Shown here: positions 1,883 to 15,603 of the stretch, in pieces
Layout: each line of letters opens with the position of its first letter
How positions within the stretch are numbered: the first letter of the stretch is position 1
NCBI GenBank assembly: GCA_949289005.1
Contig: CASEMQ010000067.1
Location: forward strand, 128,365 to 192,364
Direction: 5' to 3'
DNA from: an uncultured Lentisphaeraceae bacterium
GTDB taxonomy: Bacteria > Verrucomicrobiota > Kiritimatiellia > RFP12 > DVOR01
Length of the DNA: 64,000 nt
The notes under the pieces: model-generated
Database searches by the model: none
What the model was told of the DNA's origin: nothing
Seen by the model: the letters and a program-made list of their open reading frames with translations, nothing else
Position numbers and translations under genes: made by a program

Positions 1883-2970
1883 CGTGTTTCTCCTTGCAGG
1901 TTTTTATCGCCCTTCAGGCGGTAAAAACGCGTTGTATCATTGAAAACCGGAATCGAGACGACACCCTCTTCTCTGATACGCCACTTAGTATAGCGCATCG
2001 CGTCGGAATTCGCAAGTCCTTTTTCTTGGAGGAAGGTATCGAAGGGTACCCACGTGCCGTCGAGCGCGTCCGACGTCTCCAGCGTGTAGGTCGTGATGTC
2101 GGGCGCTTGGGCCGGGGAGAGGGTAAGCGACAGCGTGGGCGTCCCGCCCCCCTGCGCGAGCGACATCCCCGAGATGGCCGGCTTGAGCGCGGCCTCGATG
2201 GCCGTAGGGTCGGTCAGCGTCTCACCGGCAACCACAATCGATGAAAGGGGCGCGGTCTCCTGAATCGCGGCAATGGTCGTCGCACCGCTATACCCACCAA
2301 AAGTCATCCCTTCTGGAAGATTCATCGCAATATTCTTCACACCCATCGGGGTTGCCTCGAAACGATGGCAAAAAGAAGCACCGTAGGCGGCAAGCGGCGT
2401 GGGCGCCTTCCCGTCGGTCACGCGCGCGGCAACCGTCGTCTCCCCGGTTTGAGGGTCGACGACCCGCGTATCGAACACCACGCAATAGAGGTAGGCATAA
2501 CGCATAGGGCGCGTACCGGCAGAGTTCGGCCAATAAAACGACATCAGTCGATATTCCCCATTGCCGCCACTCAAGGGTTGCCACGTTCCTGCAGGAAGTC
2601 CATCTTCGCCAACGACTTGGGTTGTCTCGTCGGCGTTGGCGGTGGCGAGCGTGGCCCACGTGAGCACATCGAGGTTGTCTTCCTTGGCCTGCAACGTGCC
2701 ATCGGCGGCAATAGCGAAGGGAACCTCCTCACCTGTAGCGGTCGTCGATAGGACAATCCCACTCTTGGGCACGGCGAAGACAAACCCAAATTGTTCCCCC
2801 GGGAGCGCGACCGATCCATCGGCGTACGTGAGCGGCGCGGAACCAATGGTCTGCTCCCCGGAAGTCACGCCACGCACGAACATGATTTGCGCATATGTCG
2901 ACAAGCCAATTTGCGCCCGGGCGAGGGGCGCGAGAGCGAGCAACGCGAAGAGAAAACAACTGTTTTTCAT
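1879..2970 (-). CDS. Secreted hypothetical protein of about 363 aa. The true start is internal to the listed 464-aa ORF.
   Basis: The internal Met begins MKNSCFLFALLALAPLARAQ, a classic signal peptide. The 100 aa upstream in the ORF are Pro/Arg-rich and run into repeat copy A, so I start the gene at 2970. Confidence 0.5.
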   Translation of the reverse strand: MKNSCFLFALLALAPLARAQIGLSTYAQIMFVRGVTSGEQTIGSAPLTYADGSVALPGEQFGFVFAVPKSGIVLSTTATGEEVPFAIAADGTLQAKEDNLDVLTWATLATANADETTQVVGEDGLPAGTWQPLSGGNGEYRLMSFYWPNSAGTRPMRYAYLYCVVFDTRVVDPQTGETTVAARVTDGKAPTPLAAYGASFCHRFEATPMGVKNIAMNLPEGMTFGGYSGATTIAAIQETAPLSSIVVAGETLTDPTAIEAALKPAISGMSLAQGGGTPTLSLTLSPAQAPDITTYTLETSDALDGTWVPFDTFLQEKGLANSDAMRYTKWRIREEGVVSIPVFNDTTRFYRLKGDKNLQGETR

Positions 2971-3091
2971 GGGGATAAGTGTAGCAAAAATGCGGGGGTG
3001 TTGCCAAGAACGGGCAAGCGAAACGGTGAACGGCGGACCGGGAGCGGCGCGTTTTTTCCGGGCGTCGACGGGGCTTTGCGCGGGTGCGGGA

Positions 3092-3282
3092 AACGGCCGT
3101 TTCGGCCTTCGGTTTGGGGTTGTCGATAACTTTCGCGAATCTGTCGAAAACCTGTTGAAAGCGGGAGCGGCCGGGAGGGGGTCAAAAAGGGGGAATTCAA
3201 TCAGGGAGCGGGGTCGTTTTTCGGGATGCGCCGTACCTCGGGTTGAGACACGGCGCATCCCGGGGTGAGGCACGGCGCGATT
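3092..3282 (+). repeat. Copy A of a roughly 170-190-bp interspersed intergenic repeat. It has a conserved 5' block TGTCGATAACTTTCGCGAATCTGTCGAAAACCTGTTGAAA and palindromic arms.
   Basis: Nucleotide-level near-identity with copies at 15706..15897 (-), 38598..38770 (-) and 60612..60790 (+). An internal inverted repeat, gggatgcgccgt ... acggcgcatccc, spans 3223..3261. Confidence 0.75.
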
Positions 3283-3394
3283 CCGTCGACCGCAGTCCGT
3301 GCACGATTCGCCTGCACGGCGCCGCGTACCGCAGGACGCACCCGGGCGGGCGGGGATTGCGCGGCGGGGCGGGGTGCGTTAGGATAGAGACACT

Positions 3395-4633
3395 ATGAAT
3401 CGCAGAAACTTTCTTTCCATGTTGGGGGTCACGGGCGCGGGGGTCGCGCTGGGACCCGGAGTCGTGACCGCCGCCGAGGTCAAGCAGCCTGCCGCCGAAA
3501 CCAGGCAACCCGCGACCGAGGGTTTTGCCGTGGCGCCCTATGCGCAGCTGACGGCGCCGGGCGTCGTCGAGATTCGCTGGCGCACGCGCATGCCCGCGAC
3601 CGCCACCGTTTTCTGGACACAGGAGCCCGCGCGGCCGCGCGAGGGCTGGGCGCGCGCCGTCCGCACGGAGGATGGGATGATCGCGGCCAACGAGGTGGCG
3701 CACCGCATCGTGCTGGAGGGGTTGGACCCGGCCAAGCCGCTTGCCTTCGAGGCCGTCTCCGAGCCCATCACGAGTTTCGGCGCCTACAGCATCCGGCGGG
3801 GCGCGGCCTTTGCGTCGGGCGTGCGGACGTTGCGGCCGACGCTCAACGCGGACGGCTCGCTCACCTTCGTGGTTTTCAACGACCTGCACGGGCAGGCGGC
3901 CAACCACCTGCCCCACTTCCTGGCGTTGCCGGAGGTGGCGGCGGCCAAGCCGGCCTTCGCGCTCTTCAATGGCGACTGCGCCGATGACTGCGGGTCGCAG
4001 GAGGGCGTCGAGAAACGCTTCCTCAACGCCTTGCCGCCCCTCACGGAGGCCGGGCTCCCGGCGCTTTACCTGCGCGGCAACCACGAGTATCGCGGGGCCA
4101 TGGCGCGGCGCATCCGCGCCAACCTCGCCCCGCTCGCCAACGGCAAGTTTTACGGCGCCTTCGACCTCGGCCCCGCGCGGTTCCTCATGCTGGACAGCGG
4201 CGAGGACAAACCCGACGACGCCAAGGTCTACGGCGGCCTGCTCGCCACCGACGCCTATTTGCGGGAGCAGGCCGACTGGCTCCGCCGCGAGGTAGCCTCG
4301 CCCGCCTGGAAGGCCGCCAAGCATCGCTTGGCCTTTTGGCACATCCCGCCGGTGAGCGACAATCCCGGCGAGGACAAGTGGTATGGCCCCACGCGGCTAC
4401 GCGAGCTCATCTCGCCCACGCTCAAGGACGCGGGGCTGGACGCCTTGGTCAGCGCCCACACCCACATGCACCGCTTGGTCAAGCCCACCGAGGCGCACCC
4501 CTATCCCATCCTGATCGGCGGCGGGCCAAACCCCAAGGGCGCCACCGTCATCCTCGCGCGCGTCTCCGCGCAGGGCGTCAGCCTCGTCGCCTACGGGCAC
4601 GACGGCAAGGCGCTCCACGAGGTCAAGGCCTAA
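3395..4633 (+). CDS. Tat-exported calcineurin-like metallophosphoesterase (purple-acid-phosphatase-like)
   Basis: MNRRNFLSMLGVTGAG is a twin-arginine signal. The motifs GDCADD and RGNHEY match a metallophosphatase active site. Confidence 0.75.
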   Translation: MNRRNFLSMLGVTGAGVALGPGVVTAAEVKQPAAETRQPATEGFAVAPYAQLTAPGVVEIRWRTRMPATATVFWTQEPARPREGWARAVRTEDGMIAANEVAHRIVLEGLDPAKPLAFEAVSEPITSFGAYSIRRGAAFASGVRTLRPTLNADGSLTFVVFNDLHGQAANHLPHFLALPEVAAAKPAFALFNGDCADDCGSQEGVEKRFLNALPPLTEAGLPALYLRGNHEYRGAMARRIRANLAPLANGKFYGAFDLGPARFLMLDSGEDKPDDAKVYGGLLATDAYLREQADWLRREVASPAWKAAKHRLAFWHIPPVSDNPGEDKWYGPTRLRELISPTLKDAGLDALVSAHTHMHRLVKPTEAHPYPILIGGGPNPKGATVILARVSAQGVSLVAYGHDGKALHEVKA

Positions 4634-4636
4634 GCC

Positions 4637-5854
4637 ATGAAGCGCCGCGCCTTCCTGGCCGCCCTTGGCGGCACCGTCGCCGCGCCCGCGCTCGTCGCCG
4701 CGCCCGCCCCCAAGGACGGGGCGCGGGGCAAGGGGACGGGCGCGGACTTCCTCCAGCCGCCCACCGCGCAACTCGTCGGCCCCGACGCGCTGGCCATCTG
4801 CTGGCGCACCGCGGGGGCCTCCGCCGGGAGCGTCCGCTGGACGCAGGACCCCGACCTGCCCGAAGAAAAGTGGGCCACCGCGCGGCGCGTCGTGGACGGG
4901 CTTGTCGCCTCCAACCGCCCCGACCACCTTGTCACCCTGCGCGGCGTGGACTTCACGAAGCCGATCCGCTTCCGCGTCGAGTCCGTCGCGACGACGATGG
5001 ATCCGTGGTGGACGCGCTTCGGCGAGACGACCCGTGGCGAGACCGTCGCCATCCCGCCGCTTGTCCGCGCGGGCGACGCGCTCACCTTCGCGGTGCTCAA
5101 CGACCTGCACGCCAACACCGCGCTCATCCCCGACCTGCTTGGGCTGGCGCCCATCGCCGAGGCCAACCCGGCCTTCGTGGCGCTCAACGGCGATTGCGCC
5201 GGCAACGTCAGCGGCCCCGAGCAGTTGCGCAAGGCGTTGCTCGGGCCGATGGCCGACCTCACCGCCCGCGGCGTGCCCATGCTCTTTCTGCGCGGCAACC
5301 ACGAGTATCGCGGCGTGATGGCGCGCCGCCTGCGCGAGGCCTTCGCCACCTTCACGCCCACCGACGCCTATTACGCCGACTTCGCCCTCGGCCCGTTGCG
5401 CCTGCTCCTGCTCGATGGCGGCGAGGACAAGGTCGACACCCACCGCGAATACTGCGGGCTCCTGGCGTGCGAGGATTACCTGGCGCAAGAGGGGCGTTGG
5501 CTCCGGGGCGCCGTGGCCACGCCGGAATGGAAGGCCGCCAAGCGCCGCCTCGCGCTCTGCCACATCCCGCCCGAATGCGGCAATGCGGACGAGGACGCCA
5601 AGCATGGCCCCGCGCGTCTGCGCCGTTTCCTCTCGCCGAGCCTCCGCGAGGCCGGGCTGGCCGCCCTGCTCTGCGCGCACACCCACCGCGAGGGTTTCCT
5701 CCCCGCCACGGAGGCGCGCCCCTACCCCATCCTCATCGGCGGCGGCCCCAAGGCCAAAAACGCCACCGTCACGCTCGTGCGGGCCACCCCCGAGCGCCTC
5801 GACATCACCGCCTACGCCCACGACGGCACGCGCCTGCACGCCATCAACACCTAA
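4637..5854 (+). CDS. Tat-exported metallophosphoesterase, a tandem paralog of the preceding gene
   Basis: MKRRAFLAALGG is a Tat signal. The same motifs appear (NGDCAGN, RGNHEYRG) and the two proteins align along their whole length. It starts 3 nt after the upstream stop. Confidence 0.75.
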   Translation: MKRRAFLAALGGTVAAPALVAAPAPKDGARGKGTGADFLQPPTAQLVGPDALAICWRTAGASAGSVRWTQDPDLPEEKWATARRVVDGLVASNRPDHLVTLRGVDFTKPIRFRVESVATTMDPWWTRFGETTRGETVAIPPLVRAGDALTFAVLNDLHANTALIPDLLGLAPIAEANPAFVALNGDCAGNVSGPEQLRKALLGPMADLTARGVPMLFLRGNHEYRGVMARRLREAFATFTPTDAYYADFALGPLRLLLLDGGEDKVDTHREYCGLLACEDYLAQEGRWLRGAVATPEWKAAKRRLALCHIPPECGNADEDAKHGPARLRRFLSPSLREAGLAALLCAHTHREGFLPATEARPYPILIGGGPKAKNATVTLVRATPERLDITAYAHDGTRLHAINT

Positions 5855-5896
5855 AAAGTGCTTGCTTTTTAACGCGATATTTGATATACTGCACGT

Positions 5897-7132
5897 ATGA
5901 AAGTCATTCATACGGCAGATTGGCATTTGGGCGCGAGGCTCCATGACCAGGAACGCGCGGACGAGCACCGGGCGTTCCTGGCTTTTTTGTTGGGGTTGAT
6001 CGAGACGGAACGGCCGGACGCGTTGTTGGTGTCGGGGGACATCTTCGACATGCGCCAGCCGGGCCTTTCGGCGCAACGGCAGTATTACGCGTTTCTGGCG
6101 GATCTGGCGGCGTTGCCCTACCGCCCGATGTGCGTCATCACGGCGGGCAACCACGACTCGGCCTACTTCCTGGCCTCGGCCAAGGAGGTGCTGCGCTTCC
6201 TGAACGTGCGGGTGGTCGCCAAGGCGGGGGAGGATGTGGCGGACGAGGTGGTGACGTTGCCCCGCGCGGACGGTTCGCCGGGACTGGCGATCGCGGCGAT
6301 CCCCTTCCTAAGCGAGGGCGAGCTGAACAACATCGCCCGCGCGGCCGGCGTGACGGAGGACGTGCCCGGCGGCCCCCGCCGCGCCGAGGTGGGCTGGCGG
6401 CGCCACGTGCGGGCCGTCATCGCGGCCGCGCGGGCCGCCGCGCCGGGCGTGCCCGTGGTGGCGATGGCGCATGGCACGCTGACGGGCGCGACGGTGAGCG
6501 ACGACCGTTCGGAGCGCGGGCGGCGCATCGGCGGCGTGGAGGCGTTGCCGGCGGATGCCTTCGCGGGGGCCGACTATGTGGCGTTGGGGCACCTGCACCT
6601 GCCGCAGGCCGTCGGCGCGGCGCACAACATCCGCTACGCGGGCGCGCCGCTGGCGATGAGTTTCGACGAGGCGGCGCGCGCCAAGTCCGTGACGGTGGTG
6701 GAGCCGGGCGAACGCGCGGGCGACCCGATCGCGGTGCGCGAGGTGCCGACGCCGTGCCCCGTGGCGTTGCGGCGCTTCACGGGCACGGCCGAGGACGTCC
6801 GCCGCGACCTCGCGGCCTTCGCGGCCACGGATGCGCCGGCCTATGTGGCGGCGCGCGTGACGGAGGGGGAGGGCGACCTGACGGCGCTCTGGCCGGCGCT
6901 GCAGGCGCTTTTCCCGCCGGAGAAGGCGGCGCGCCTCCTGCTGATGGAGGATGCCCGGGCGGCGGTCGCGCCGGGCACAGGGCTGGCCGCCGTGGCGGAG
7001 GGACAGCCGCTCGATGCGCTCGAGCCGCTGGAGGTGGCGCGTCTGCGCCTGGATGAGCTGCCCAACCTCTCGGACGAGGAGCGCGCGGCGTATCTGGATC
7101 TGGTGAAAGAGGCGATGGGGGACCTGGCATGA
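5897..7132 (+). CDS. sbcD: Exonuclease SbcCD subunit D, an Mre11-like nuclease
   Basis: MKVIHTADWHLG...GDIFD...AGNHD are phosphoesterase motifs I-III of Mre11/SbcD. Its stop overlaps the sbcC start in an ATGA junction. Confidence 0.85.
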   Translation: MKVIHTADWHLGARLHDQERADEHRAFLAFLLGLIETERPDALLVSGDIFDMRQPGLSAQRQYYAFLADLAALPYRPMCVITAGNHDSAYFLASAKEVLRFLNVRVVAKAGEDVADEVVTLPRADGSPGLAIAAIPFLSEGELNNIARAAGVTEDVPGGPRRAEVGWRRHVRAVIAAARAAAPGVPVVAMAHGTLTGATVSDDRSERGRRIGGVEALPADAFAGADYVALGHLHLPQAVGAAHNIRYAGAPLAMSFDEAARAKSVTVVEPGERAGDPIAVREVPTPCPVALRRFTGTAEDVRRDLAAFAATDAPAYVAARVTEGEGDLTALWPALQALFPPEKAARLLLMEDARAAVAPGTGLAAVAEGQPLDALEPLEVARLRLDELPNLSDEERAAYLDLVKEAMGDLA

Positions 7133-9855
7133 GGCTGTGCAACGTGGCTTTCGCGAACCTCAATTCCTTGGCCGGCGCCTGGCGGATCGACTTCGAGGCG
7201 CCGGCGTTCACCGACGGGCTCTTCCTTATCGGCGGCGAGACGGGCGCGGGCAAGACGACCATCCTGGACGCCGTGTCGCTGGCGCTCTATGGGCGCACGG
7301 CACGCCAAGGCACCGTCACGAAGTCCGGCAACGCGATTCTCTCCCGCGGGCATGGCTATGCCTGGGCCGAGGCGGAGTTCGAGACCGCCGAGGGACGTTT
7401 CCGTGCGCGTTGGGAACAGCACCGTGCGCGCAACAAACCGCAGGGCGAGCTGCAAAACGTCGTCGTCTCCCTCTTCGATTGCCGCGCGAACCGCGAACTC
7501 AGCGACCATCGCCGCAAGGATACGCGCCGCCTCATCGAGGCCAAGGTGGGGCTTTCGTTCGACCAGTTCCAGCGCACGATGATGCTCGCGCAGGGGCAAT
7601 TCGACCGCTTCCTCGCGGCCAACGATGCCGATCGCGCCGACATCCTCCGGCAGACCACCGGCACGGAGCGCTTCGCGCAGGTGGGCGAGGCCATCCACCA
7701 ACGCTACACCAACGCGCGAAACGAGGTGGAGCGTCTGAAAACCGAACTGGGGACGCTCACGGCGCTCACCCCGGAAGCGCGCCAAACCATCGCGGACGAA
7801 CTGGACGCCTATCGGGCGCAGGCCAACGCGGCGCGCGCGGCGTCTGAGACGCTGCAGGCGCGTTTGAAGACCTTTGACGAGGCCGCCAAGGCCGACTCCG
7901 ACGCCCAAGCCGACGTGACCCGGCGCGAGGCCGAGGCCAAGACCGCCGAGGCCGCACGCGAAAAGGCCGAAGCCAGACTGAAGGAAAAGGTGACCGGCCG
8001 GAAGGCCATCGCCAAGGTCGCGAAAGAAGCCGAGCCGAAAATCCGCGTGGCCCTGGACTTGGAAGGGCGGCTCTCGCAGGCGAAAACCAAGTGCGAGGCG
8101 CTCGCGAAACATCACGCGGCCACCGTGAAGACCCTCGCCGCCACCCGAACCGCCCTGACGCGGCGCACGCGGGAGATGGAGGAGGCCGAGGCCCTGGCCA
8201 ACGCGCTCCACGCCATGCTGGAAGGGCGCGAGGCGGCTTTCCCGGCATCCGCCGCGGACCTGCGCCGGGAGGCGGCGCGTTTGCGCGACTTGCGCACGGC
8301 GCTTGCCCGCGAGGCGGACACCCTGGGCACGCTCGGCGAACAGGCCACGCAGGCACGCGCGGAGGCGGAGGCGGCCGAAGCGTCCTTCGAGGCGCGGGAG
8401 CCAGACTTGCGCGCGGCCTTGGCGAACGCGGGGTTGGCAGTGGATCTGGCGGTGCGCGTGGCGAGCCTGGAGGAGCACCGCAAGGCGTTGGAGGCCGGCA
8501 AGCCGTGCCCGCTCTGCGGCGCGTTGGAGCACCCCTACGCCATGGGCTCGCATCCGGAAAAGTCGCAGGCCGAACAAGCGCGCGACGCCGCCAAGGAGGC
8601 GCTGGAACGCGCACAGGCCGCGCGCGACAAGGCCGATGCCGCCGCCCGGAAGGCCGAGAAGGCCCTGCGCGACGCGGAGGCCAAGGGGAAACGCCAACGC
8701 GAGGAATGTGCCGCGCTGGAGAAGGGATTCGGCGAGCAAGCCGCCGCCGCGAAGGCCAAAGCCAAGACCAACCGCGAGACGATTGCGGAGACGCGCCAAA
8801 CGCTGGACGAACAGGAAGCGCAGGCAACCGCGGAGGCGGGGTCGCTCGCGCAGGCCGAGGAAACGTGCGAGCGTTTGACGGCGGAACTGAAGGCGATCGG
8901 GCTGCCCATGCCGCCCGAAGCGCTCCGCGATGACCTGCGGCAACGTTGCGACGATGCAGCCAAGGATGTCGCCGCCGCGGAGACGACGTTGGCGGCCGCG
9001 CGGGCGAAGACGGACACGGCGCGGCAGGAGTTCGAGGCGGCCAAGGCGTTTGCCGAGACGGCCCGGGAGAGGCACGAAGCCGCGCGGGAAGCGCTCGGGG
9101 AGCCGCCCGAAACGTTGCGGGGGCGCGAGGCGGAACAGGCGCAAGCGATCCGCGACCTCGACCAGGAGATTGGCCAGCGGCTGGAGAAGTTGACGCGGGA
9201 CGACCAAGACCGCGACCGGCACGCACGGAAGCAAAAGGAACTCGACCGCGCGCGGGCGCTTTGCGACCGTTGGAAGAAACTCAACGACTGGCTCGGCGGC
9301 ATGGACGGCGACAAGTTCAACCGCTACGCGCAGGGCATCACCCTGCGGCAGTTGCTCCGCCATGCCAACCCGCACCTGCTCGCAATGTCGCAGGGGCGTT
9401 ACGCGATGGTGTGGTTGCCCGCCATCAACGCGGACAAAGAGACCACGGAAAAGGACGACGCCAAGGAGTCGCCCCCGCCGCCCTTGGTGCCCACGATCGT
9501 GGACAACGACCAGGCGCGGGCGCTCCGCCCGGTGAGCAATCTCTCGGGCGGCGAACGCTTCCAAGTCTCCTTGGCGCTGGCGTTGGGGCTCTCGGAGATG
9601 TCCGGCGCGAAGGTGCGGGTCGACACACTCTTCCTGGACGAAGGGTTTGGCACGCTCGACAGCAAGACGTTGGAGGCGGCCCTCGACACCTTGACGCGGA
9701 TTCAGCGCGACGGCAAACTCATCGGCATCATCTCGCACGTGGCGGCCTTGGGCGATCGTATCCGCGCGAAAATCCATGTGACCAAGCGCGGCGGCGGCCG
9801 CTCCATGATCGAAGGCCCCGGCGTGACGGCATTGGGGGACAGCGCCAAGACCTGA
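7129..9855 (+). CDS. sbcC: Exonuclease SbcCD subunit C, an SMC/Rad50-like ATPase
   Basis: Walker A GETGAGKTT, a long Ala/Glu/Arg-rich coiled coil, a CPLCG zinc hook, the ABC signature LSGGERFQVSLALALG, and Walker B LFLDEGFGTLD. Confidence 0.85.
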   Translation: MRLCNVAFANLNSLAGAWRIDFEAPAFTDGLFLIGGETGAGKTTILDAVSLALYGRTARQGTVTKSGNAILSRGHGYAWAEAEFETAEGRFRARWEQHRARNKPQGELQNVVVSLFDCRANRELSDHRRKDTRRLIEAKVGLSFDQFQRTMMLAQGQFDRFLAANDADRADILRQTTGTERFAQVGEAIHQRYTNARNEVERLKTELGTLTALTPEARQTIADELDAYRAQANAARAASETLQARLKTFDEAAKADSDAQADVTRREAEAKTAEAAREKAEARLKEKVTGRKAIAKVAKEAEPKIRVALDLEGRLSQAKTKCEALAKHHAATVKTLAATRTALTRRTREMEEAEALANALHAMLEGREAAFPASAADLRREAARLRDLRTALAREADTLGTLGEQATQARAEAEAAEASFEAREPDLRAALANAGLAVDLAVRVASLEEHRKALEAGKPCPLCGALEHPYAMGSHPEKSQAEQARDAAKEALERAQAARDKADAAARKAEKALRDAEAKGKRQREECAALEKGFGEQAAAAKAKAKTNRETIAETRQTLDEQEAQATAEAGSLAQAEETCERLTAELKAIGLPMPPEALRDDLRQRCDDAAKDVAAAETTLAAARAKTDTARQEFEAAKAFAETARERHEAAREALGEPPETLRGREAEQAQAIRDLDQEIGQRLEKLTRDDQDRDRHARKQKELDRARALCDRWKKLNDWLGGMDGDKFNRYAQGITLRQLLRHANPHLLAMSQGRYAMVWLPAINADKETTEKDDAKESPPPPLVPTIVDNDQARALRPVSNLSGGERFQVSLALALGLSEMSGAKVRVDTLFLDEGFGTLDSKTLEAALDTLTRIQRDGKLIGIISHVAALGDRIRAKIHVTKRGGGRSMIEGPGVTALGDSAKT

Positions 9856-11745: not shown

Positions 11746-11842
11746 GGCACGCATAATACCATATTCACCCCCTTTCTGCCCCTGCCCAAAGGCCACGGGA
11801 TGTGTTAAACTACGCGCAAACCCACCGAAAGGAACACGTATC

Positions 11843-13306
11843 ATGGGCAAACTGTCATTCGCTTTCGTTTTGGCCTCGTCGCTGACCGCGGCGGCGCAGG
11901 CGGCCATTTCCGGCATCAAGGTGACGCCGACGGGCGTGCCGGCCTTCAAAGGGCGCAAGGACGTGCCCATCGCGCAAGTCACCTTCACCGCCTCGCAGGC
12001 CGCCCAGGCCGAGAAGGTACGCCTGGACATCCGCGGCACCAACCCCTCCGACGTGCTCTGCCTGAGCCTGGGGCAATCGGAGTGCGCGCGCGTGGCCAAC
12101 GACGCGGCAACCTTCACGGTGCCGGTGAAGGCTGGCGAGAACACCTTCCCGCTCTTCGCGCAACTCTCCGACGAGGCCACCGTCAGCGGCTCGCTCTGCA
12201 TCGCGGGCGAACGCATCCGCATCGGCAGCGTGGTGACGCGCCCCGCGCAGGAAATCTCCGACCGCCGCCTGCCCGACGGCCGCCTGCGCGCCTCCAAGAA
12301 CTTCCGCATCCCCGGCATCGTCAAGACCCCGAAGGGCAACCTCGTGGCCGTCTTCGACATCCGCTACAAGCACGCGGGCGACCTCCCGGCCGACATCACG
12401 GTGGGCGCCTCCACCTCCGCCGACGGCGGCAACACCTGGAGCCCCATCGTCACCGCGATGGATTACGCCGGCACCCCCGGCACCAAGCAAGGCATCGGCG
12501 ACCCGGCCATCCTCGTGGACCCCTCCAACAACCGCCTTTGGATCATGGCCATGCGCACGCCCGACTCCGGCCACCCTATCTGGAGTTCCTCCGCCGGCAC
12601 CACCGGCCACGAAACCTGCGCCCAGCTCTACGTCGCCTACTCCGACGACGAGGGCAAGACTTGGTCGAAACCGCGCAACATCACCGCCGAACTCAAGAAC
12701 CCCGGCCACCCCGAGGCCGCCAAATGGGGCATCCTCTTCGACGGGCCCGGCGCCGGCATCGTGCTGAAAAACGGCACACTCGTCTTCCCCGGCCAAGCCT
12801 GGGGCGACAAGGGCAAAGCCCCCCGCCACGGCACGCTCATCTACTCCAAGGACCACGGCAAAACCTGGCAAGTCTCCAACGGCATGCCCTTCGGCGGCTC
12901 CGAGTCCACCGTCGTCCAATTGGCCGATGGCTCCATCCTCCTGAACACCCGCGAGGGCACCCCCGGCCGGCGCACCACCGCCCGCACCACCGACTTGGGC
13001 CAAACCTGGCAAAAGCTCGAGACCTCTCCCTTGATCCAGCCCGGCACCTGCCAGGCCGCGATGGTGCGCGTGGGCAACACCCTCGTCTTCTCCAACCCCA
13101 ACTCCGCCAAAGGCCGCAACACCATGTCGCTCCGCGTCTCGAAAGACAACGGCAAGACTTGGTCCAAGGGGCTCGTCTACGACCCGCGCAACTGCGCGGG
13201 CTACTCCTCGCTCTGCGACTTGGGCGACGGCGCCGTGGGCGTGCTCTACGAAGGCAACTCCGATTATCTCTACTTCCTGCGCGTCCCCGTCAAGGACATC
13301 CCTTGA
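11843..13306 (+). CDS. Exo-alpha-sialidase (GH33) with a signal peptide
   Basis: Signal peptide MGKLSFAFVLASSLTAAAQA. The FRIP motif appears as FRIPGIVKT. There are five Asp-box/BNR repeats: SADGGNTWS, SDDEGKTWS, SKDHGKTWQ, TTDLGQTWQ and SKDNGKTWS. A ribosome-binding site AAAGGAAC lies upstream. Confidence 0.85.
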   Translation: MGKLSFAFVLASSLTAAAQAAISGIKVTPTGVPAFKGRKDVPIAQVTFTASQAAQAEKVRLDIRGTNPSDVLCLSLGQSECARVANDAATFTVPVKAGENTFPLFAQLSDEATVSGSLCIAGERIRIGSVVTRPAQEISDRRLPDGRLRASKNFRIPGIVKTPKGNLVAVFDIRYKHAGDLPADITVGASTSADGGNTWSPIVTAMDYAGTPGTKQGIGDPAILVDPSNNRLWIMAMRTPDSGHPIWSSSAGTTGHETCAQLYVAYSDDEGKTWSKPRNITAELKNPGHPEAAKWGILFDGPGAGIVLKNGTLVFPGQAWGDKGKAPRHGTLIYSKDHGKTWQVSNGMPFGGSESTVVQLADGSILLNTREGTPGRRTTARTTDLGQTWQKLETSPLIQPGTCQAAMVRVGNTLVFSNPNSAKGRNTMSLRVSKDNGKTWSKGLVYDPRNCAGYSSLCDLGDGAVGVLYEGNSDYLYFLRVPVKDIP

Positions 13307-13902
13307 ACCCCGAGACCCCCGCGCGCGACTGCCCCTTCACCGCCCTGGACTTTGAGACGACCGGGGTGGTGCGGGGCTATCGAAGCCTCCCCTGGCAGGT
13401 CGGCGCCATCAGCCTGCGCGGCGGGAAGGTCGCGCCGGACGCCCCGCGCGTGGACACGCTCCTGCGCGTGCCGGCGGGGCACCCTTTCTCGCGCCACGCG
13501 CCGGGCGACCACCGCGCACGGCGCGATGCCATCGCGGCCGCGCCCGAGGCGTTGACCGTCTGGGCCGGGACGCTCCACCCCCTGCTCGCCGCCACCGTCC
13601 CCGTGGCGCACAATATCGCCGCCGAACGCACCACCCTCGCCCGTTTGGCGCCCATGACCGAGTATCCCTTCTGGGTGGACACCCTGCGCCTGGCGCGCCA
13701 GGCCTGGCCCGGGTTGCCCAGCCACGCGCTCGAGGATCTCGCCCCCGCGCTCGGCCTGGGGCCGCGCCTGCGCGCCCTCGCCCCCGGCCGCGCCCCGCAC
13801 GATGCCTTCTACGACGCGGTGGCCTGCGCGCTCCTGCTGGAATATCTCCTTGCGCTCCCGGGGTGGGACGCCCTCACCCTCGCCGACCTCGCCACGCCAT
13901 GA
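13303..13902 (+). CDS. DEDDh 3'-5' exonuclease (DnaQ / Pol III epsilon-like) with a probable TTG start
   Basis: Exo motifs LDFETTG, AHNIAAERTTL and HDAFYDAVA. There is no ATG or GTG upstream of the Exo I motif. A TTG at 13303 is preceded by AAGGA and overlaps the sialidase stop. Confidence 0.55.
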   Translation: MNPETPARDCPFTALDFETTGVVRGYRSLPWQVGAISLRGGKVAPDAPRVDTLLRVPAGHPFSRHAPGDHRARRDAIAAAPEALTVWAGTLHPLLAATVPVAHNIAAERTTLARLAPMTEYPFWVDTLRLARQAWPGLPSHALEDLAPALGLGPRLRALAPGRAPHDAFYDAVACALLLEYLLALPGWDALTLADLATP

Positions 13903-14549
13903 ACGTCCCCGCCCGCCCATTCCTCCGCATAATCGCCGCGACGATCGGCGTCGCCGTCGCCCTCGTTTTTTGCGCCGCCAACACCGCGCCGGCGACGGGC
14001 GCCGTGCCGCCGCCGAACGCCCTGCTTCGCCAGTTGCTCGTGGGGCAGGCCCTCTCCGCGGCGCTCTTTGCGCCGCCCGTGGCGTTCTGGTGCCTCGCCG
14101 AGGGGTGGACGCGCCTGCGCGAACGGTGGTTCGCCTGGCCCAAGGGTTGGGGCGCGCGCCGCGTTTTGGGGCTCTTCGCGCTCGCGTTGGCGGGAAGTTA
14201 CGCCCTGGCCGAGGGAGTCACCGTCGGCGACGAACAGGAGGCGGTCGGGTTGCTGGCCACCCTTCGCCCCGGGCAACTCCTCCTCTTCGCGCCCTTCCTC
14301 TGCGTGCTCACGCCGCTGGCGGAGGAATGTCTCTTTCGCGGGGTGCTGCAAAGCGCCGCCCGCCCCGCGTGGGCGTTGCCGATTTCGGCGATTTGCTTCG
14401 GTCTCGCCCATGGGGCCAACGCCTTCGCCCTGCCGCTGACGTTGCTGGGCTGGGTGCTCGGATGGGTCACGCAAGCCTCGCGCTCCCTGCTCCCGGCCAT
14501 CGTCATCCACGGCCTTTTCAATCTCCTCACCCTGCTCGCGCTCTTCTGA
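13899..14549 (+). CDS. CPBP-family (CAAX / Abi-type) intramembrane metalloprotease
   Basis: Polytopic, with EECLFRG and FGLAHG motifs (the EExxxR and HxxxH sites). Its ATG overlaps the upstream stop in an ATGA junction. Confidence 0.7.
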   Translation: MNVPARPFLRIIAATIGVAVALVFCAANTAPATGAVPPPNALLRQLLVGQALSAALFAPPVAFWCLAEGWTRLRERWFAWPKGWGARRVLGLFALALAGSYALAEGVTVGDEQEAVGLLATLRPGQLLLFAPFLCVLTPLAEECLFRGVLQSAARPAWALPISAICFGLAHGANAFALPLTLLGWVLGWVTQASRSLLPAIVIHGLFNLLTLLALF

Positions 14550-14562
14550 AAGGAACCCGGCC

Positions 14563-15603
14563 ATGACGCACAAACGGCCGTTTGGCCTCACCCGCCCACG
14601 GCGCCTCGCCGCCGCCCTGCTCCTCTGCGCGTTGCCCCTGGCGCTCGGGTGCGCCGCGCGCGCCCTGCCCTTCTCCGAGGAATCCGCCGCTCTCGTCGCC
14701 TACTACGAGCCCCGCCGCGCCGCCGACCAAGCGCACGTGGACGCGCTCGCCGCCGCCCGGGCGGGCGATTTGGCCGCCGTCGAAAGATGGCGCGCGGGCA
14801 TTGCCGAGGCTGCCCCCGCCGTCGAGGATTTCAACGCCGCGCACGCCGGCAAGGTCACCTTGCGCGTCCGGGGTCCCTGGGCCGTCTACGCCCCCGCCGA
14901 AGGTGAGCCGCGCGCCTCCTTCCTCTACCTGCACGGCGGCGGATGGGTCGTCGGCTCCGCGCGCATGAACGAGCCCTTCCTCGCCGCCCTCGCCGAGCGC
15001 GCGCAAATCGCCGTCTGGTCGCTCGATTATCCCCTCGCGCCCGAGTGCCCCTTCCCTGCCGCCCCCGATGCCTGCGTCCAAGCCGTGAAGGAGCTGCGCC
15101 GCCGCTTCCCCGACCGTCCCCTCTTTGTCGGCGGCGATTCCGCGGGCGGCACGTTGGCCCTCGTGGCGGGGCTGGCCGCGCCCAAATCCGTCGATGGCCT
15201 GGTGCTCTACTATCCCGCCCTTGGCCCCGGCGCCGAGCAAACCCCCGAATGGGCCGCCTACCGCGACGTCATCCTCCTCACCGACAACCTCATGAACGCC
15301 TTCACGGCCACCTACGTGGACGACGTCACCTTCCGCACCAACCCGCAGGCATCGCCCAACCTTGCCGACGACGCCTCCCTGCGCGCCCTCCCGCCCATCC
15401 TCACCGTGGCCGCCGACTGCGACCTCTTGGCCGGTCTCTCGCGCCGCTTCCACGCCCGCCTCCAAAAACTCGGCCGCGGTCAGGACGAACGTATCGTCGT
15501 CCCCGGTTCCCTCCACGGCTTTCTCTCCTTCCCCACCCTGCCCCAATCGCAACGGCAGGCGCTCGACCTCACCCTCCGCTGGCTCGATGCCCGCCTCAAG
15601 TGA
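14563..15603 (+). CDS. Alpha/beta-hydrolase esterase/lipase (HSL/Aes-like) lipoprotein
   Basis: Lipobox LALGC, an HGGG oxyanion motif (FLYLHGGGW), and the nucleophile elbow GDSAGG. Confidence 0.75.
   Translation: MTHKRPFGLTRPRRLAAALLLCALPLALGCAARALPFSEESAALVAYYEPRRAADQAHVDALAAARAGDLAAVERWRAGIAEAAPAVEDFNAAHAGKVTLRVRGPWAVYAPAEGEPRASFLYLHGGGWVVGSARMNEPFLAALAERAQIAVWSLDYPLAPECPFPAAPDACVQAVKELRRRFPDRPLFVGGDSAGGTLALVAGLAAPKSVDGLVLYYPALGPGAEQTPEWAAYRDVILLTDNLMNAFTATYVDDVTFRTNPQASPNLADDASLRALPPILTVAADCDLLAGLSRRFHARLQKLGRGQDERIVVPGSLHGFLSFPTLPQSQRQALDLTLRWLDARLK

Follow-up and report, generated by a model that had tools for sequence, protein, structure and literature searches.

Why the gene for a secreted sialidase should be packed head to tail with genes for a cytoplasmic exonuclease, an intramembrane protease, and an esterase is the question raised by positions 11843–15603 of a 64,000-nucleotide stretch of DNA from an uncultured Lentisphaeraceae bacterium (contig CASEMQ010000067.1, positions 128,365–192,364; hereafter the window). 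All four genes are on the plus strand, and the junctions between them are, in order, a TTGA stop-start overlap, an ATGA stop-start overlap, and a 13-nucleotide gap. The gene order, the coordinates, and the junctions had been put forward in an original prediction made from the sequence alone, and they are exact; family searches have also confirmed that the products are a sialidase, a DnaQ-like exonuclease, a CPBP protease, and an esterase. The locus is probably an ordinary, vertically inherited, and translationally coupled mixed-function operon, the core genes of which share expression and most likely no pathway. The core consists of the sialidase, exonuclease, and CPBP genes, subsequently referred to as the trio. 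The conserved linkage is a minor curiosity and not a new kind of system: all four proteins are members of known families, with junctions of the textbook translational-coupling type.

The conservation of the locus has been determined from 80 species-representative loci, all of them from metagenome-assembled genomes, some of which are mislabelled. In one gut clade, whose records bear the name Kiritimatiellae or Candidatus Spyradenecus, the sialidase, exonuclease, and CPBP genes occur together in 26 of 26 species-level genomes, wherever the contig reaches far enough. The trio is common to all 276 of the 276 locus pairs, and homologues in the flanks are shared by eight of these pairs in the 4 kb upstream and by 12 in the 4 kb downstream. 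The five annotated contexts of the trio are all different. A neighbour-joining tree of the exonuclease recovers the trio-carrying clade as monophyletic, with identity decreasing to 52% and guanine-cytosine (GC) content ranging from 45% to 73%. The GC content of the trio follows that of its flanks (r = 0.96), and no integrase, transposase, cas, or other mobility gene is adjacent to the trio in the five annotated contexts. Therefore, the trio was inherited vertically, and a mobile cassette was rejected as an explanation on the same evidence. The expectation that all four genes are conserved together, as one co-inherited module, holds for the trio with its scrambled flanks and fails for the esterase, a homologue of which was found within 6 kb of the exonuclease gene in none of the 80 loci. 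Three of the loci (L006, L061, and L075) carry the Kiritimatiellae-type exonuclease under the titles Agathobacter rectalis, Akkermansia muciniphila, and Akkermansia sp., and NCBI places Candidatus Spyradenecus under Lentisphaerota; the odd record names and this filing are probably binning or labelling errors.

The junction of the sialidase and exonuclease genes had been predicted to contain the start of the exonuclease at a TTG codon at position 13303, the TG of which is shared with the TGA stop codon of the sialidase, because no ATG or GTG precedes the Exo I motif and the sequence AAGGA stands upstream. Both observations are correct. Between the TTG and the Exo I aspartate at 13348, the exonuclease frame has neither an ATG nor a GTG, and apart from this TTG the 62 codons upstream of that aspartate contain no ATG, GTG, or TTG. 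The next in-frame starts upstream are a TTG at −63 codons, an ATG at −208, and a GTG at −422, all of them deep within the sialidase gene. The first GTG codons downstream of the TTG are codons 22–23, which lie past Exo I; an internal start there was rejected, because it would remove the motif. Upstream CTG or TTG starts were also discarded, since they would add unconserved residues from the alternative frame of the sialidase gene, in which stop codons occur in the relatives that have a spacer between the two genes.

The position of the start has been compared at the junctions of the 26 genomes, from among the 80 loci, in which the sialidase gene lies upstream. Twelve of these junctions are NTGA overlaps, and their start codons are TTG in three (the window, L001, and L002), ATG in one (L003), and GTG in eight; the ATG of L003 is at the identical codon to the TTG of the window. 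Three genomes have an 11-base overlap with an ATG start, and the remaining 11 have an intergenic spacer, followed by an ATG start in ten of them. In 25 homologues, which are 187–207 residues long, the start lies 8–17 residues before the sequence DFETTG, and in the closest relatives the residues just after it are conserved as xPETPAR. The AAGGA before the TTG agrees with the usual ribosome-binding sequence of this genome, GAAAGGA. TTG 13303 is thus, with high confidence from the comparison of orthologues, the true start of the exonuclease and should be annotated as such. A conventional ATG start at a different position in the orthologues had been named as the finding that would speak against the TTG, and the outcome of this comparison favours the TTG; the proposed translational coupling likewise draws support from the orthologous junctions. 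The start codon takes its first base from the wobble position of the last sense codon of the sialidase gene (CCT, GAA, CAG, CCG, and others), and therefore TTG, GTG, and ATG can be interchanged by single-base changes. The junction provides a clean natural example of the start of a coupled gene drifting among ATG, GTG, and TTG.

Upstream of the Exo I aspartate, the exonuclease frame runs without a stop codon for 514 codons, which span the whole sialidase gene, and a list of open reading frames consequently shows one of 606 amino acids with a GTG start (12082–13902). This 606-codon frame is an artefact of high GC content that could mislead gene callers. A frameshift fusion of the sialidase and the exonuclease was rejected, because the frame closes 10–60 codons upstream in most relatives.

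The start of the CPBP gene in an ATGA overlap with the exonuclease stop codon, which had also been predicted, is present in the sequence. A purine-rich Shine-Dalgarno sequence is absent upstream of the CPBP ATG; therefore, the CPBP protein is probably translated by reinitiation at the ATGA. The overlap is ATGA in 12 loci, and in most others the two genes are separated by a single nucleotide, overlap by one to eight nucleotides, or have a spacer of up to approximately 30 nucleotides. Bacterial genes frequently share four nucleotides in a stop-start overlap, and such an overlap is by itself not improbable. The two junctions in the window resemble known NTGA termination-reinitiation coupling in their TTGA and ATGA overlaps, in the AAGGA six nucleotides before the TTG, and in the absence of a separate CPBP Shine-Dalgarno sequence, and they do not differ from it in kind. 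Two loci, L007 (approximately 6586–6640) and L013 (approximately 6586–6600), have no ATG, GTG, or TTG for the CPBP gene near the exonuclease stop codon; the in-frame candidates nearby are CTG codons just past the TAA, and the nearest ATG is 176 nucleotides upstream, within the exonuclease gene. Initiation at CTG by coupling or an assembly error could account for these two junctions.

The favoured reading implies that the block is transcribed as a single polycistronic message in a high-GC gut bacterium of the Planctomycetes–Verrucomicrobia–Chlamydiae (PVC) group, from the Kiritimatiellae/Candidatus Spyradenecus lineage, and that its translation is graded gene by gene. A strong Shine-Dalgarno sequence would direct abundant synthesis of the sialidase, which would then be exported. 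After termination at the sialidase TGA, ribosomes would reinitiate on the TTG, a weak start codon, and would produce a smaller amount of the cytoplasmic exonuclease, and those that finish at the exonuclease TGA would reinitiate on the overlapping ATG and produce the CPBP membrane protease. Translation of the esterase would be directed by a separate Shine-Dalgarno sequence 13 nucleotides further on. The trio would stay together because neither the exonuclease gene nor the CPBP gene has a promoter of its own, and ribosome-binding sites of their own are often absent as well, so that separation from the sialidase gene would silence them. Such dependence on upstream signals is the simplest account of the long-lived linkage. 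The rpsU-dnaG-rpoD macromolecular-synthesis operon is a classic mixed-function operon, which similarly holds unrelated roles in one unit over long evolution and in which the downstream genes need upstream signals. By contrast, the locus described here combines an exported glycoside hydrolase with a nuclease and a membrane protease, belongs to one gut clade, and is a predicted co-transcription unit.

Table 1 Features of the sialidase–exonuclease–CPBP–esterase locus (window coordinates).
Feature	Position	Strand	Details and basis
Intergenic region separating the sialidase gene from the divergent sixA-like phosphatase gene (minus strand); presumed promoter	11758–11842	+	Position only
Glycoside hydrolase family 33 (GH33) exo-alpha-sialidase, 487 amino acids	11843–13306	+	ATG 11843, TGA 13304–13306; BNR domains
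Coupling junction: AAGGA 13292–13296, 6-nucleotide spacer, TTG 13303–13305 overlapping TGA 13304–13306	13292–13306	+	Sequence and orthologues
Stand-alone DnaQ-like DEDDh 3'–5' exonuclease, 199 amino acids, TTG start	13303–13902	+	TGA 13900–13902; profile, AlphaFold2, Foldseek
Exonuclease–CPBP ATGA stop-start overlap	13899–13902	+	CPBP ATG 13899–13901, exonuclease TGA 13900–13902
CPBP (Rce1-like) glutamic intramembrane protease, 216 amino acids	13899–14549	+	PF02517, motifs, hydropathy
Family-IV (hormone-sensitive-lipase type) alpha/beta-hydrolase esterase, 346 amino acids	14563–15603	+	Abhydrolase_3, motifs

The genes upstream of the sialidase gene, which encode a sixA-like phosphatase and a sodium symporter, have the opposite orientation, and the downstream genes hisA, hisB, and hisC converge on the four-gene unit. 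Therefore, the four genes form a block by orientation alone. The block has the marks of an operon: it is on one strand, its genes are connected by stop-start overlaps or a minimal gap, and it contains no internal terminator, as the terminator-like matches on the plus strand are all within coding sequence and are as frequent as in shuffled sequence. The GC content at third codon positions (GC3) is 0.87–0.92 in the four chosen frames, in a window with 66% GC, and all four are therefore native coding genes. A Shine-Dalgarno sequence, GAAAGGAA, is located at 11827–11834, eight nucleotides before the ATG of the sialidase. The ribosome-binding sequence GAAAGGA precedes the sialidase gene, the esterase gene, and most of the sialidase orthologues. 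Within the 30 nucleotides before the starts of the sialidase orthologues, no conserved element besides the Shine-Dalgarno sequence was recognized by eye, and an Rfam scan of the whole window yielded no RNA family.

The exonuclease matches the Pfam RNase_T family with a score of 27 bits. A profile search of solved structures ranks exonuclease X (ExoX) of Escherichia coli first (7e-11), followed by the PolC exonuclease (8e-10), the DinG exonuclease, and the epsilon subunit of DNA polymerase III (Pol III). An AlphaFold2 model of the protein has a mean predicted local distance difference test (pLDDT) score of 95.7, and a Foldseek search with this model has the exonuclease domains of PolC and DinG and the epsilon subunit on top, with a probability of 1.00. 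The fold is thus the RNase H-like one of DnaQ-type nucleases. Structures of oligoribonuclease (Orn) rank 17th or lower in the Foldseek list and fit less well than the DNA-exonuclease domains, and neither Orn nor RNase T is among the sequence matches. The protein scores below the cut-off of every NCBIfam equivalog, including the epsilon models (24 bits against a cut-off of 373). It ends right after the nuclease domain, and no clamp- or polymerase-binding tail is obvious by eye at its C terminus. Its identification as Pol III epsilon proper, as an oligoribonuclease, or as RNase T was rejected on the sequence and structure matches. Profile searches, recommended in the original prediction as the way to classify the exonuclease, place it nearest to ExoX and the PolC and DinG exonucleases.

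The active site of the exonuclease is composed of Exo I (D16/E18, in DFETTG), Exo II (H103-N104-x3-E108), and Exo III (H166/D171, Hx4D). All 81 of the 81 sequences of the family have D16, E18, E108, H166, and D171. The acidic residue of Exo II is a glutamate (HNxxxE; codon 108, at approximately 13624–13626) in all of these sequences and aligns with the Exo II aspartate of ExoX; the position thus stays acidic without having the canonical aspartate. The family, which has hundreds of members across Kiritimatiellia, appears from its sequences to be a "DEEDh" branch of DnaQ-like nucleases that is apparently undescribed. It shares with ExoX, epsilon (DnaQ), PolC, and DinG the fold, the order of the motifs, the DxE of Exo I, and the Hx4D of Exo III, whereas it differs from them in the glutamate of Exo II and in standing alone as a protein of 199 residues. 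The invariant glutamate marks a distinct, uncharacterised DEDDh nuclease branch, which merits enzymological study.

The CPBP protein matches PF02517 with an E-value of 3e-20 and a score of 72.6 bits, relative to a cut-off of 22.4. Its motifs EECLFR, FGLAH, and HGLFN are intact, and it has at least four hydrophobic segments. The scores for MrtJ (39 bits, cut-off 75), MrtS (25, cut-off 130), and myxosortase (20, cut-off 100) are all below the cut-offs; the sub-threshold matches are to MrtJ and to the ABC-permease-CPBP subfamilies, the score for the Rv0804 type is also below its cut-off, and no named subfamily can be assigned. Hydropathy profiles show that the sialidase and the esterase lack a C-terminal hydrophobic segment. 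A role of the CPBP protein as an Mrt-type sorting protease was rejected, because the scores are under the cut-offs and no substrate with a C-terminal sorting signal is encoded in its neighbourhood. The protein resembles other CPBP/Rce1-like proteases, including those of the Mrt type and the Abi type of bacteriocin immunity, in its three catalytic motifs and multi-pass topology; however, there is no cognate sorting-signal substrate and no bacteriocin gene nearby.

The sialidase is composed of an N-terminal signal peptide, an N-terminal accessory domain of approximately 125 residues, and a predicted beta-propeller. The signal peptide, which is retained in the orthologues, has a cleavage site read by eye as AQA|A and contains the only hydrophobic segment of the protein. 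The sialidase matches the Pfam families BNR_2 (4e-30) and BNR_3 (4e-28), and its matches to solved structures range from 6e-70 to 4e-66, with the enzymes of Bacteroides thetaiotaomicron (4bbw, 6e-70) and Parabacteroides (4fj6, 1e-68) at the head. The FRIP motif, which contains the first arginine of the arginine triad, is present and aligns with that of 4bbw, and there are four strict Asp-boxes (SxDxGxTW) at residues 192, 267, 335, and 433. The segments FDIRY, SES/TEA, NTR/NMR, GRN, and GYS, which presumably contain the catalytic aspartate, the glutamate/tyrosine nucleophile pair, and the other two arginines, are identical or conservatively replaced relative to 4bbw. Judged by these features, the protein is a genuine GH33 enzyme of predicted activity. 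It is strongly similar in the sequence of the catalytic propeller to the sialidases BTSA (4bbw) and 4fj6 and to the BNR/Asp-box protein 7qy9, and it has the FRIP and Asp-box motifs as well as the accessory domain and a signal peptide. GH33 sialidases of Bacteroidota are encoded in glycan-utilisation loci together with esterases, hexosaminidases, and transporters. By contrast, the conserved partners of the sialidase described here are the exonuclease and the CPBP protease. The closest relatives with solved structures are the enzymes of Bacteroides and Parabacteroides and related BNR/Asp-box enzymes from the gut and mouth, of which 7qy9 also covers part of the N-terminal domain; an exchange of this sialidase gene between phyla in the gut is possible. 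The L015 locus has two tandem GH33 genes (2849–4297 and 4553–5950) upstream of the exonuclease gene, and the copy nearer to the exonuclease carries a signal of the lipoprotein type (…FTGC) instead of the usual AQA|A.

The esterase starts 13 nucleotides after the CPBP gene, as had been predicted, and within this gap a Shine-Dalgarno sequence AAGGA (14550–14554) is positioned eight nucleotides upstream of ATG 14563. The protein matches Abhydrolase_3 (PF07859) with an E-value of 8e-43 and a score of 147 bits and LipP1 with 2e-41, the latter below the family cut-off; it is below the cut-offs of all NCBIfam equivalogs. It has the HGGG motif of the oxyanion hole and the GDSAG nucleophile elbow. Its signal peptide, read by eye, contains the lipobox-like sequence LALGC, and the esterase is thus a putative lipoprotein. 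The four-gene layout with the same flanks occurs elsewhere only in L081, a metagenome contig from the same species with 95% identity. Orthologues of the esterase with 53–69% identity have as neighbours either MerR and DUF1846 genes or genes for a metalloenzyme and DsbD; none of these orthologues is near a sialidase gene. As judged from these gene neighbourhoods, the esterase is a species-specific addition to the operon.

The branch next to the clade contains the exonuclease–CPBP pair with overlapping junctions and without the sialidase in two loci, L039 (734–1207) and L046 (4586–5995), in both of which the pair is located between a gene for a universal stress protein (Usp) and one for a SWIM/SNF2 helicase. 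In L046, a gene for a signal-peptide protein of 469 residues, which is not homologous to the sialidase and has a weak match to DUF4350 only, precedes the exonuclease gene with a GTGA overlap. A search of distant lineages with a purpose-built profile found a CPBP gene beside that of the exonuclease only in L039 and L046. In distant Kiritimatiellales, the exonuclease gene follows rpsD or a gene for the E2 component (acyltransferase) of a 2-oxoacid dehydrogenase and is itself followed by aminotransferase, Ham1, or other housekeeping genes. The sister and distant contexts therefore suggest an order of assembly. The exonuclease would originally have been a housekeeping gene, as it is found across Kiritimatiellia, and would have become paired with a CPBP gene. 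The pair would then have been placed behind the sialidase gene in the ancestor of the gut clade, and the esterase gene would have joined last, in the species of the window only.

Several observations weigh against the favoured reading that the trio shares expression and most likely no pathway. A scan for the sigma-70 consensus found no promoter. The trio is linked to a greater depth, down to 52% identity of the exonuclease, than rpsD and the exonuclease are elsewhere (73% or more); such depth in reshuffled surroundings is the pattern of a functionally selected operon, and the assumption of no shared function may be wrong. The arrangement in L046 hints that the order of an exported protein followed by the exonuclease–CPBP pair could be more than an accident. 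The trio could instead be a functional module, in which one or both of the CPBP protease and the exonuclease take part in a process connected with sialoglycan foraging and in which selection on the shared function holds the genes together. The membrane protease might, for example, process or anchor the exported sialidase, or nuclease activity might be needed during the harvest of host glycans. The presence of the trio in every genome of the clade amid scrambled flanks, the depth of its linkage compared with the other contexts of the exonuclease, the tightness of both junctions in nearly all members, and the different signal-peptide protein in L046 argue for such a module. However, the exonuclease and the exonuclease–CPBP pair occur without the sialidase in sister and distant lineages, the sialidase lacks a C-terminal sorting signal of the type cleaved by CPBP/Mrt proteases, the CPBP protein is below the cut-off of every Mrt subfamily, no genes for the uptake or catabolism of sialic acid accompany the trio in the five annotated contexts, and no mention of CPBP together with DnaQ was found in the papers searched. 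A functional module of this kind is rather unlikely. It is a doubtful proposition that the trio is an unrecognised module of gut Kiritimatiellae, in which the CPBP protease and the "DEEDh" nuclease are needed for producing, maturing, or regulating the exported sialidase or for the response to sialoglycans. If it were true, the older exonuclease–CPBP pair would be an independent two-gene system, able to join up with various exported proteins, of which L046 provides a case. A search of the literature on Kiritimatiellae sialidases, CPBP with DnaQ, and Spyradenecus returned nothing on a sialidase–exonuclease–CPBP operon, and the conserved association itself appears to be undescribed. The occurrence of a mucin-type secreted sialidase, a DnaQ-like nuclease, and a CPBP protease in one operon of an uncultured gut clade provides a concrete testable hypothesis, the practical payoff of which would be modest unless a functional link is shown.

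The remaining alternatives differ in the genes that they seek to explain. It is improbable that all four genes make up a unit for the processing of sialoglycans, in which sialic acids are relieved of their O-acetyl groups by the esterase before the sialidase acts. Sialate O-acetylesterases accompany sialidases in Bacteroidota, the matches of the esterase include acetyl-esterase families, and its gene, which lies close behind in the same orientation, has a Shine-Dalgarno sequence of its own and encodes an export signal. However, the esterase belongs to the hormone-sensitive-lipase family IV and has no SASA (PF03629) or SGNH match in Pfam, it is near the exonuclease and sialidase genes in none of the 80 loci, and its orthologues are found in unrelated contexts; the hint in the original prediction that it might be a sialate O-acetylesterase thus finds no backing in domain content or synteny. 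A mobile or defence island, in which the DEDDh nuclease and an Abi/CPBP protein form an anti-phage pair and horizontal transfer explains the differing flanks, is very improbable. Abi annotations exist for part of the CPBP family, the flanks are different in each lineage, and PADLOC matched the exonuclease to a Cas-associated DEDDh domain (1.4e-17). This match is, however, at the level of a generic domain only, which led to the rejection of the defence reading, and PADLOC found nothing for the CPBP protein or the sialidase. The agreement of the GC content of the trio with that of its hosts over the range of 45–73%, the monophyly of the clade, the lack of adjoining integrase, transposase, or cas genes, and the location of the exonuclease family beside rpsD and other core genes elsewhere also speak against an island. 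That the exonuclease frame is a decaying fragment without a proper start, expressed, if at all, only by an accident of coupling, is hardly conceivable and is refuted by the comparison with relatives. The TTG as the only start and the weak Pfam score might suggest a pseudogene, as had been considered in the original prediction; however, the frame is of the same length as those of at least 120 homologues among those listed, its five catalytic residues are invariant in the family, the orthologues start at the same position, its GC3 of 0.915 fits native coding sequence, and the predicted structure is of high confidence.

Elsewhere in the window, three tandem Metallophos (SbcD-like) genes are located at 3395–4633, 4637–5854, and 5897–7132, and such a triplication of SbcD is unusual. 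They are followed by an sbcC-like gene (7129–9855), the start of which overlaps the end of the preceding gene by four bases.

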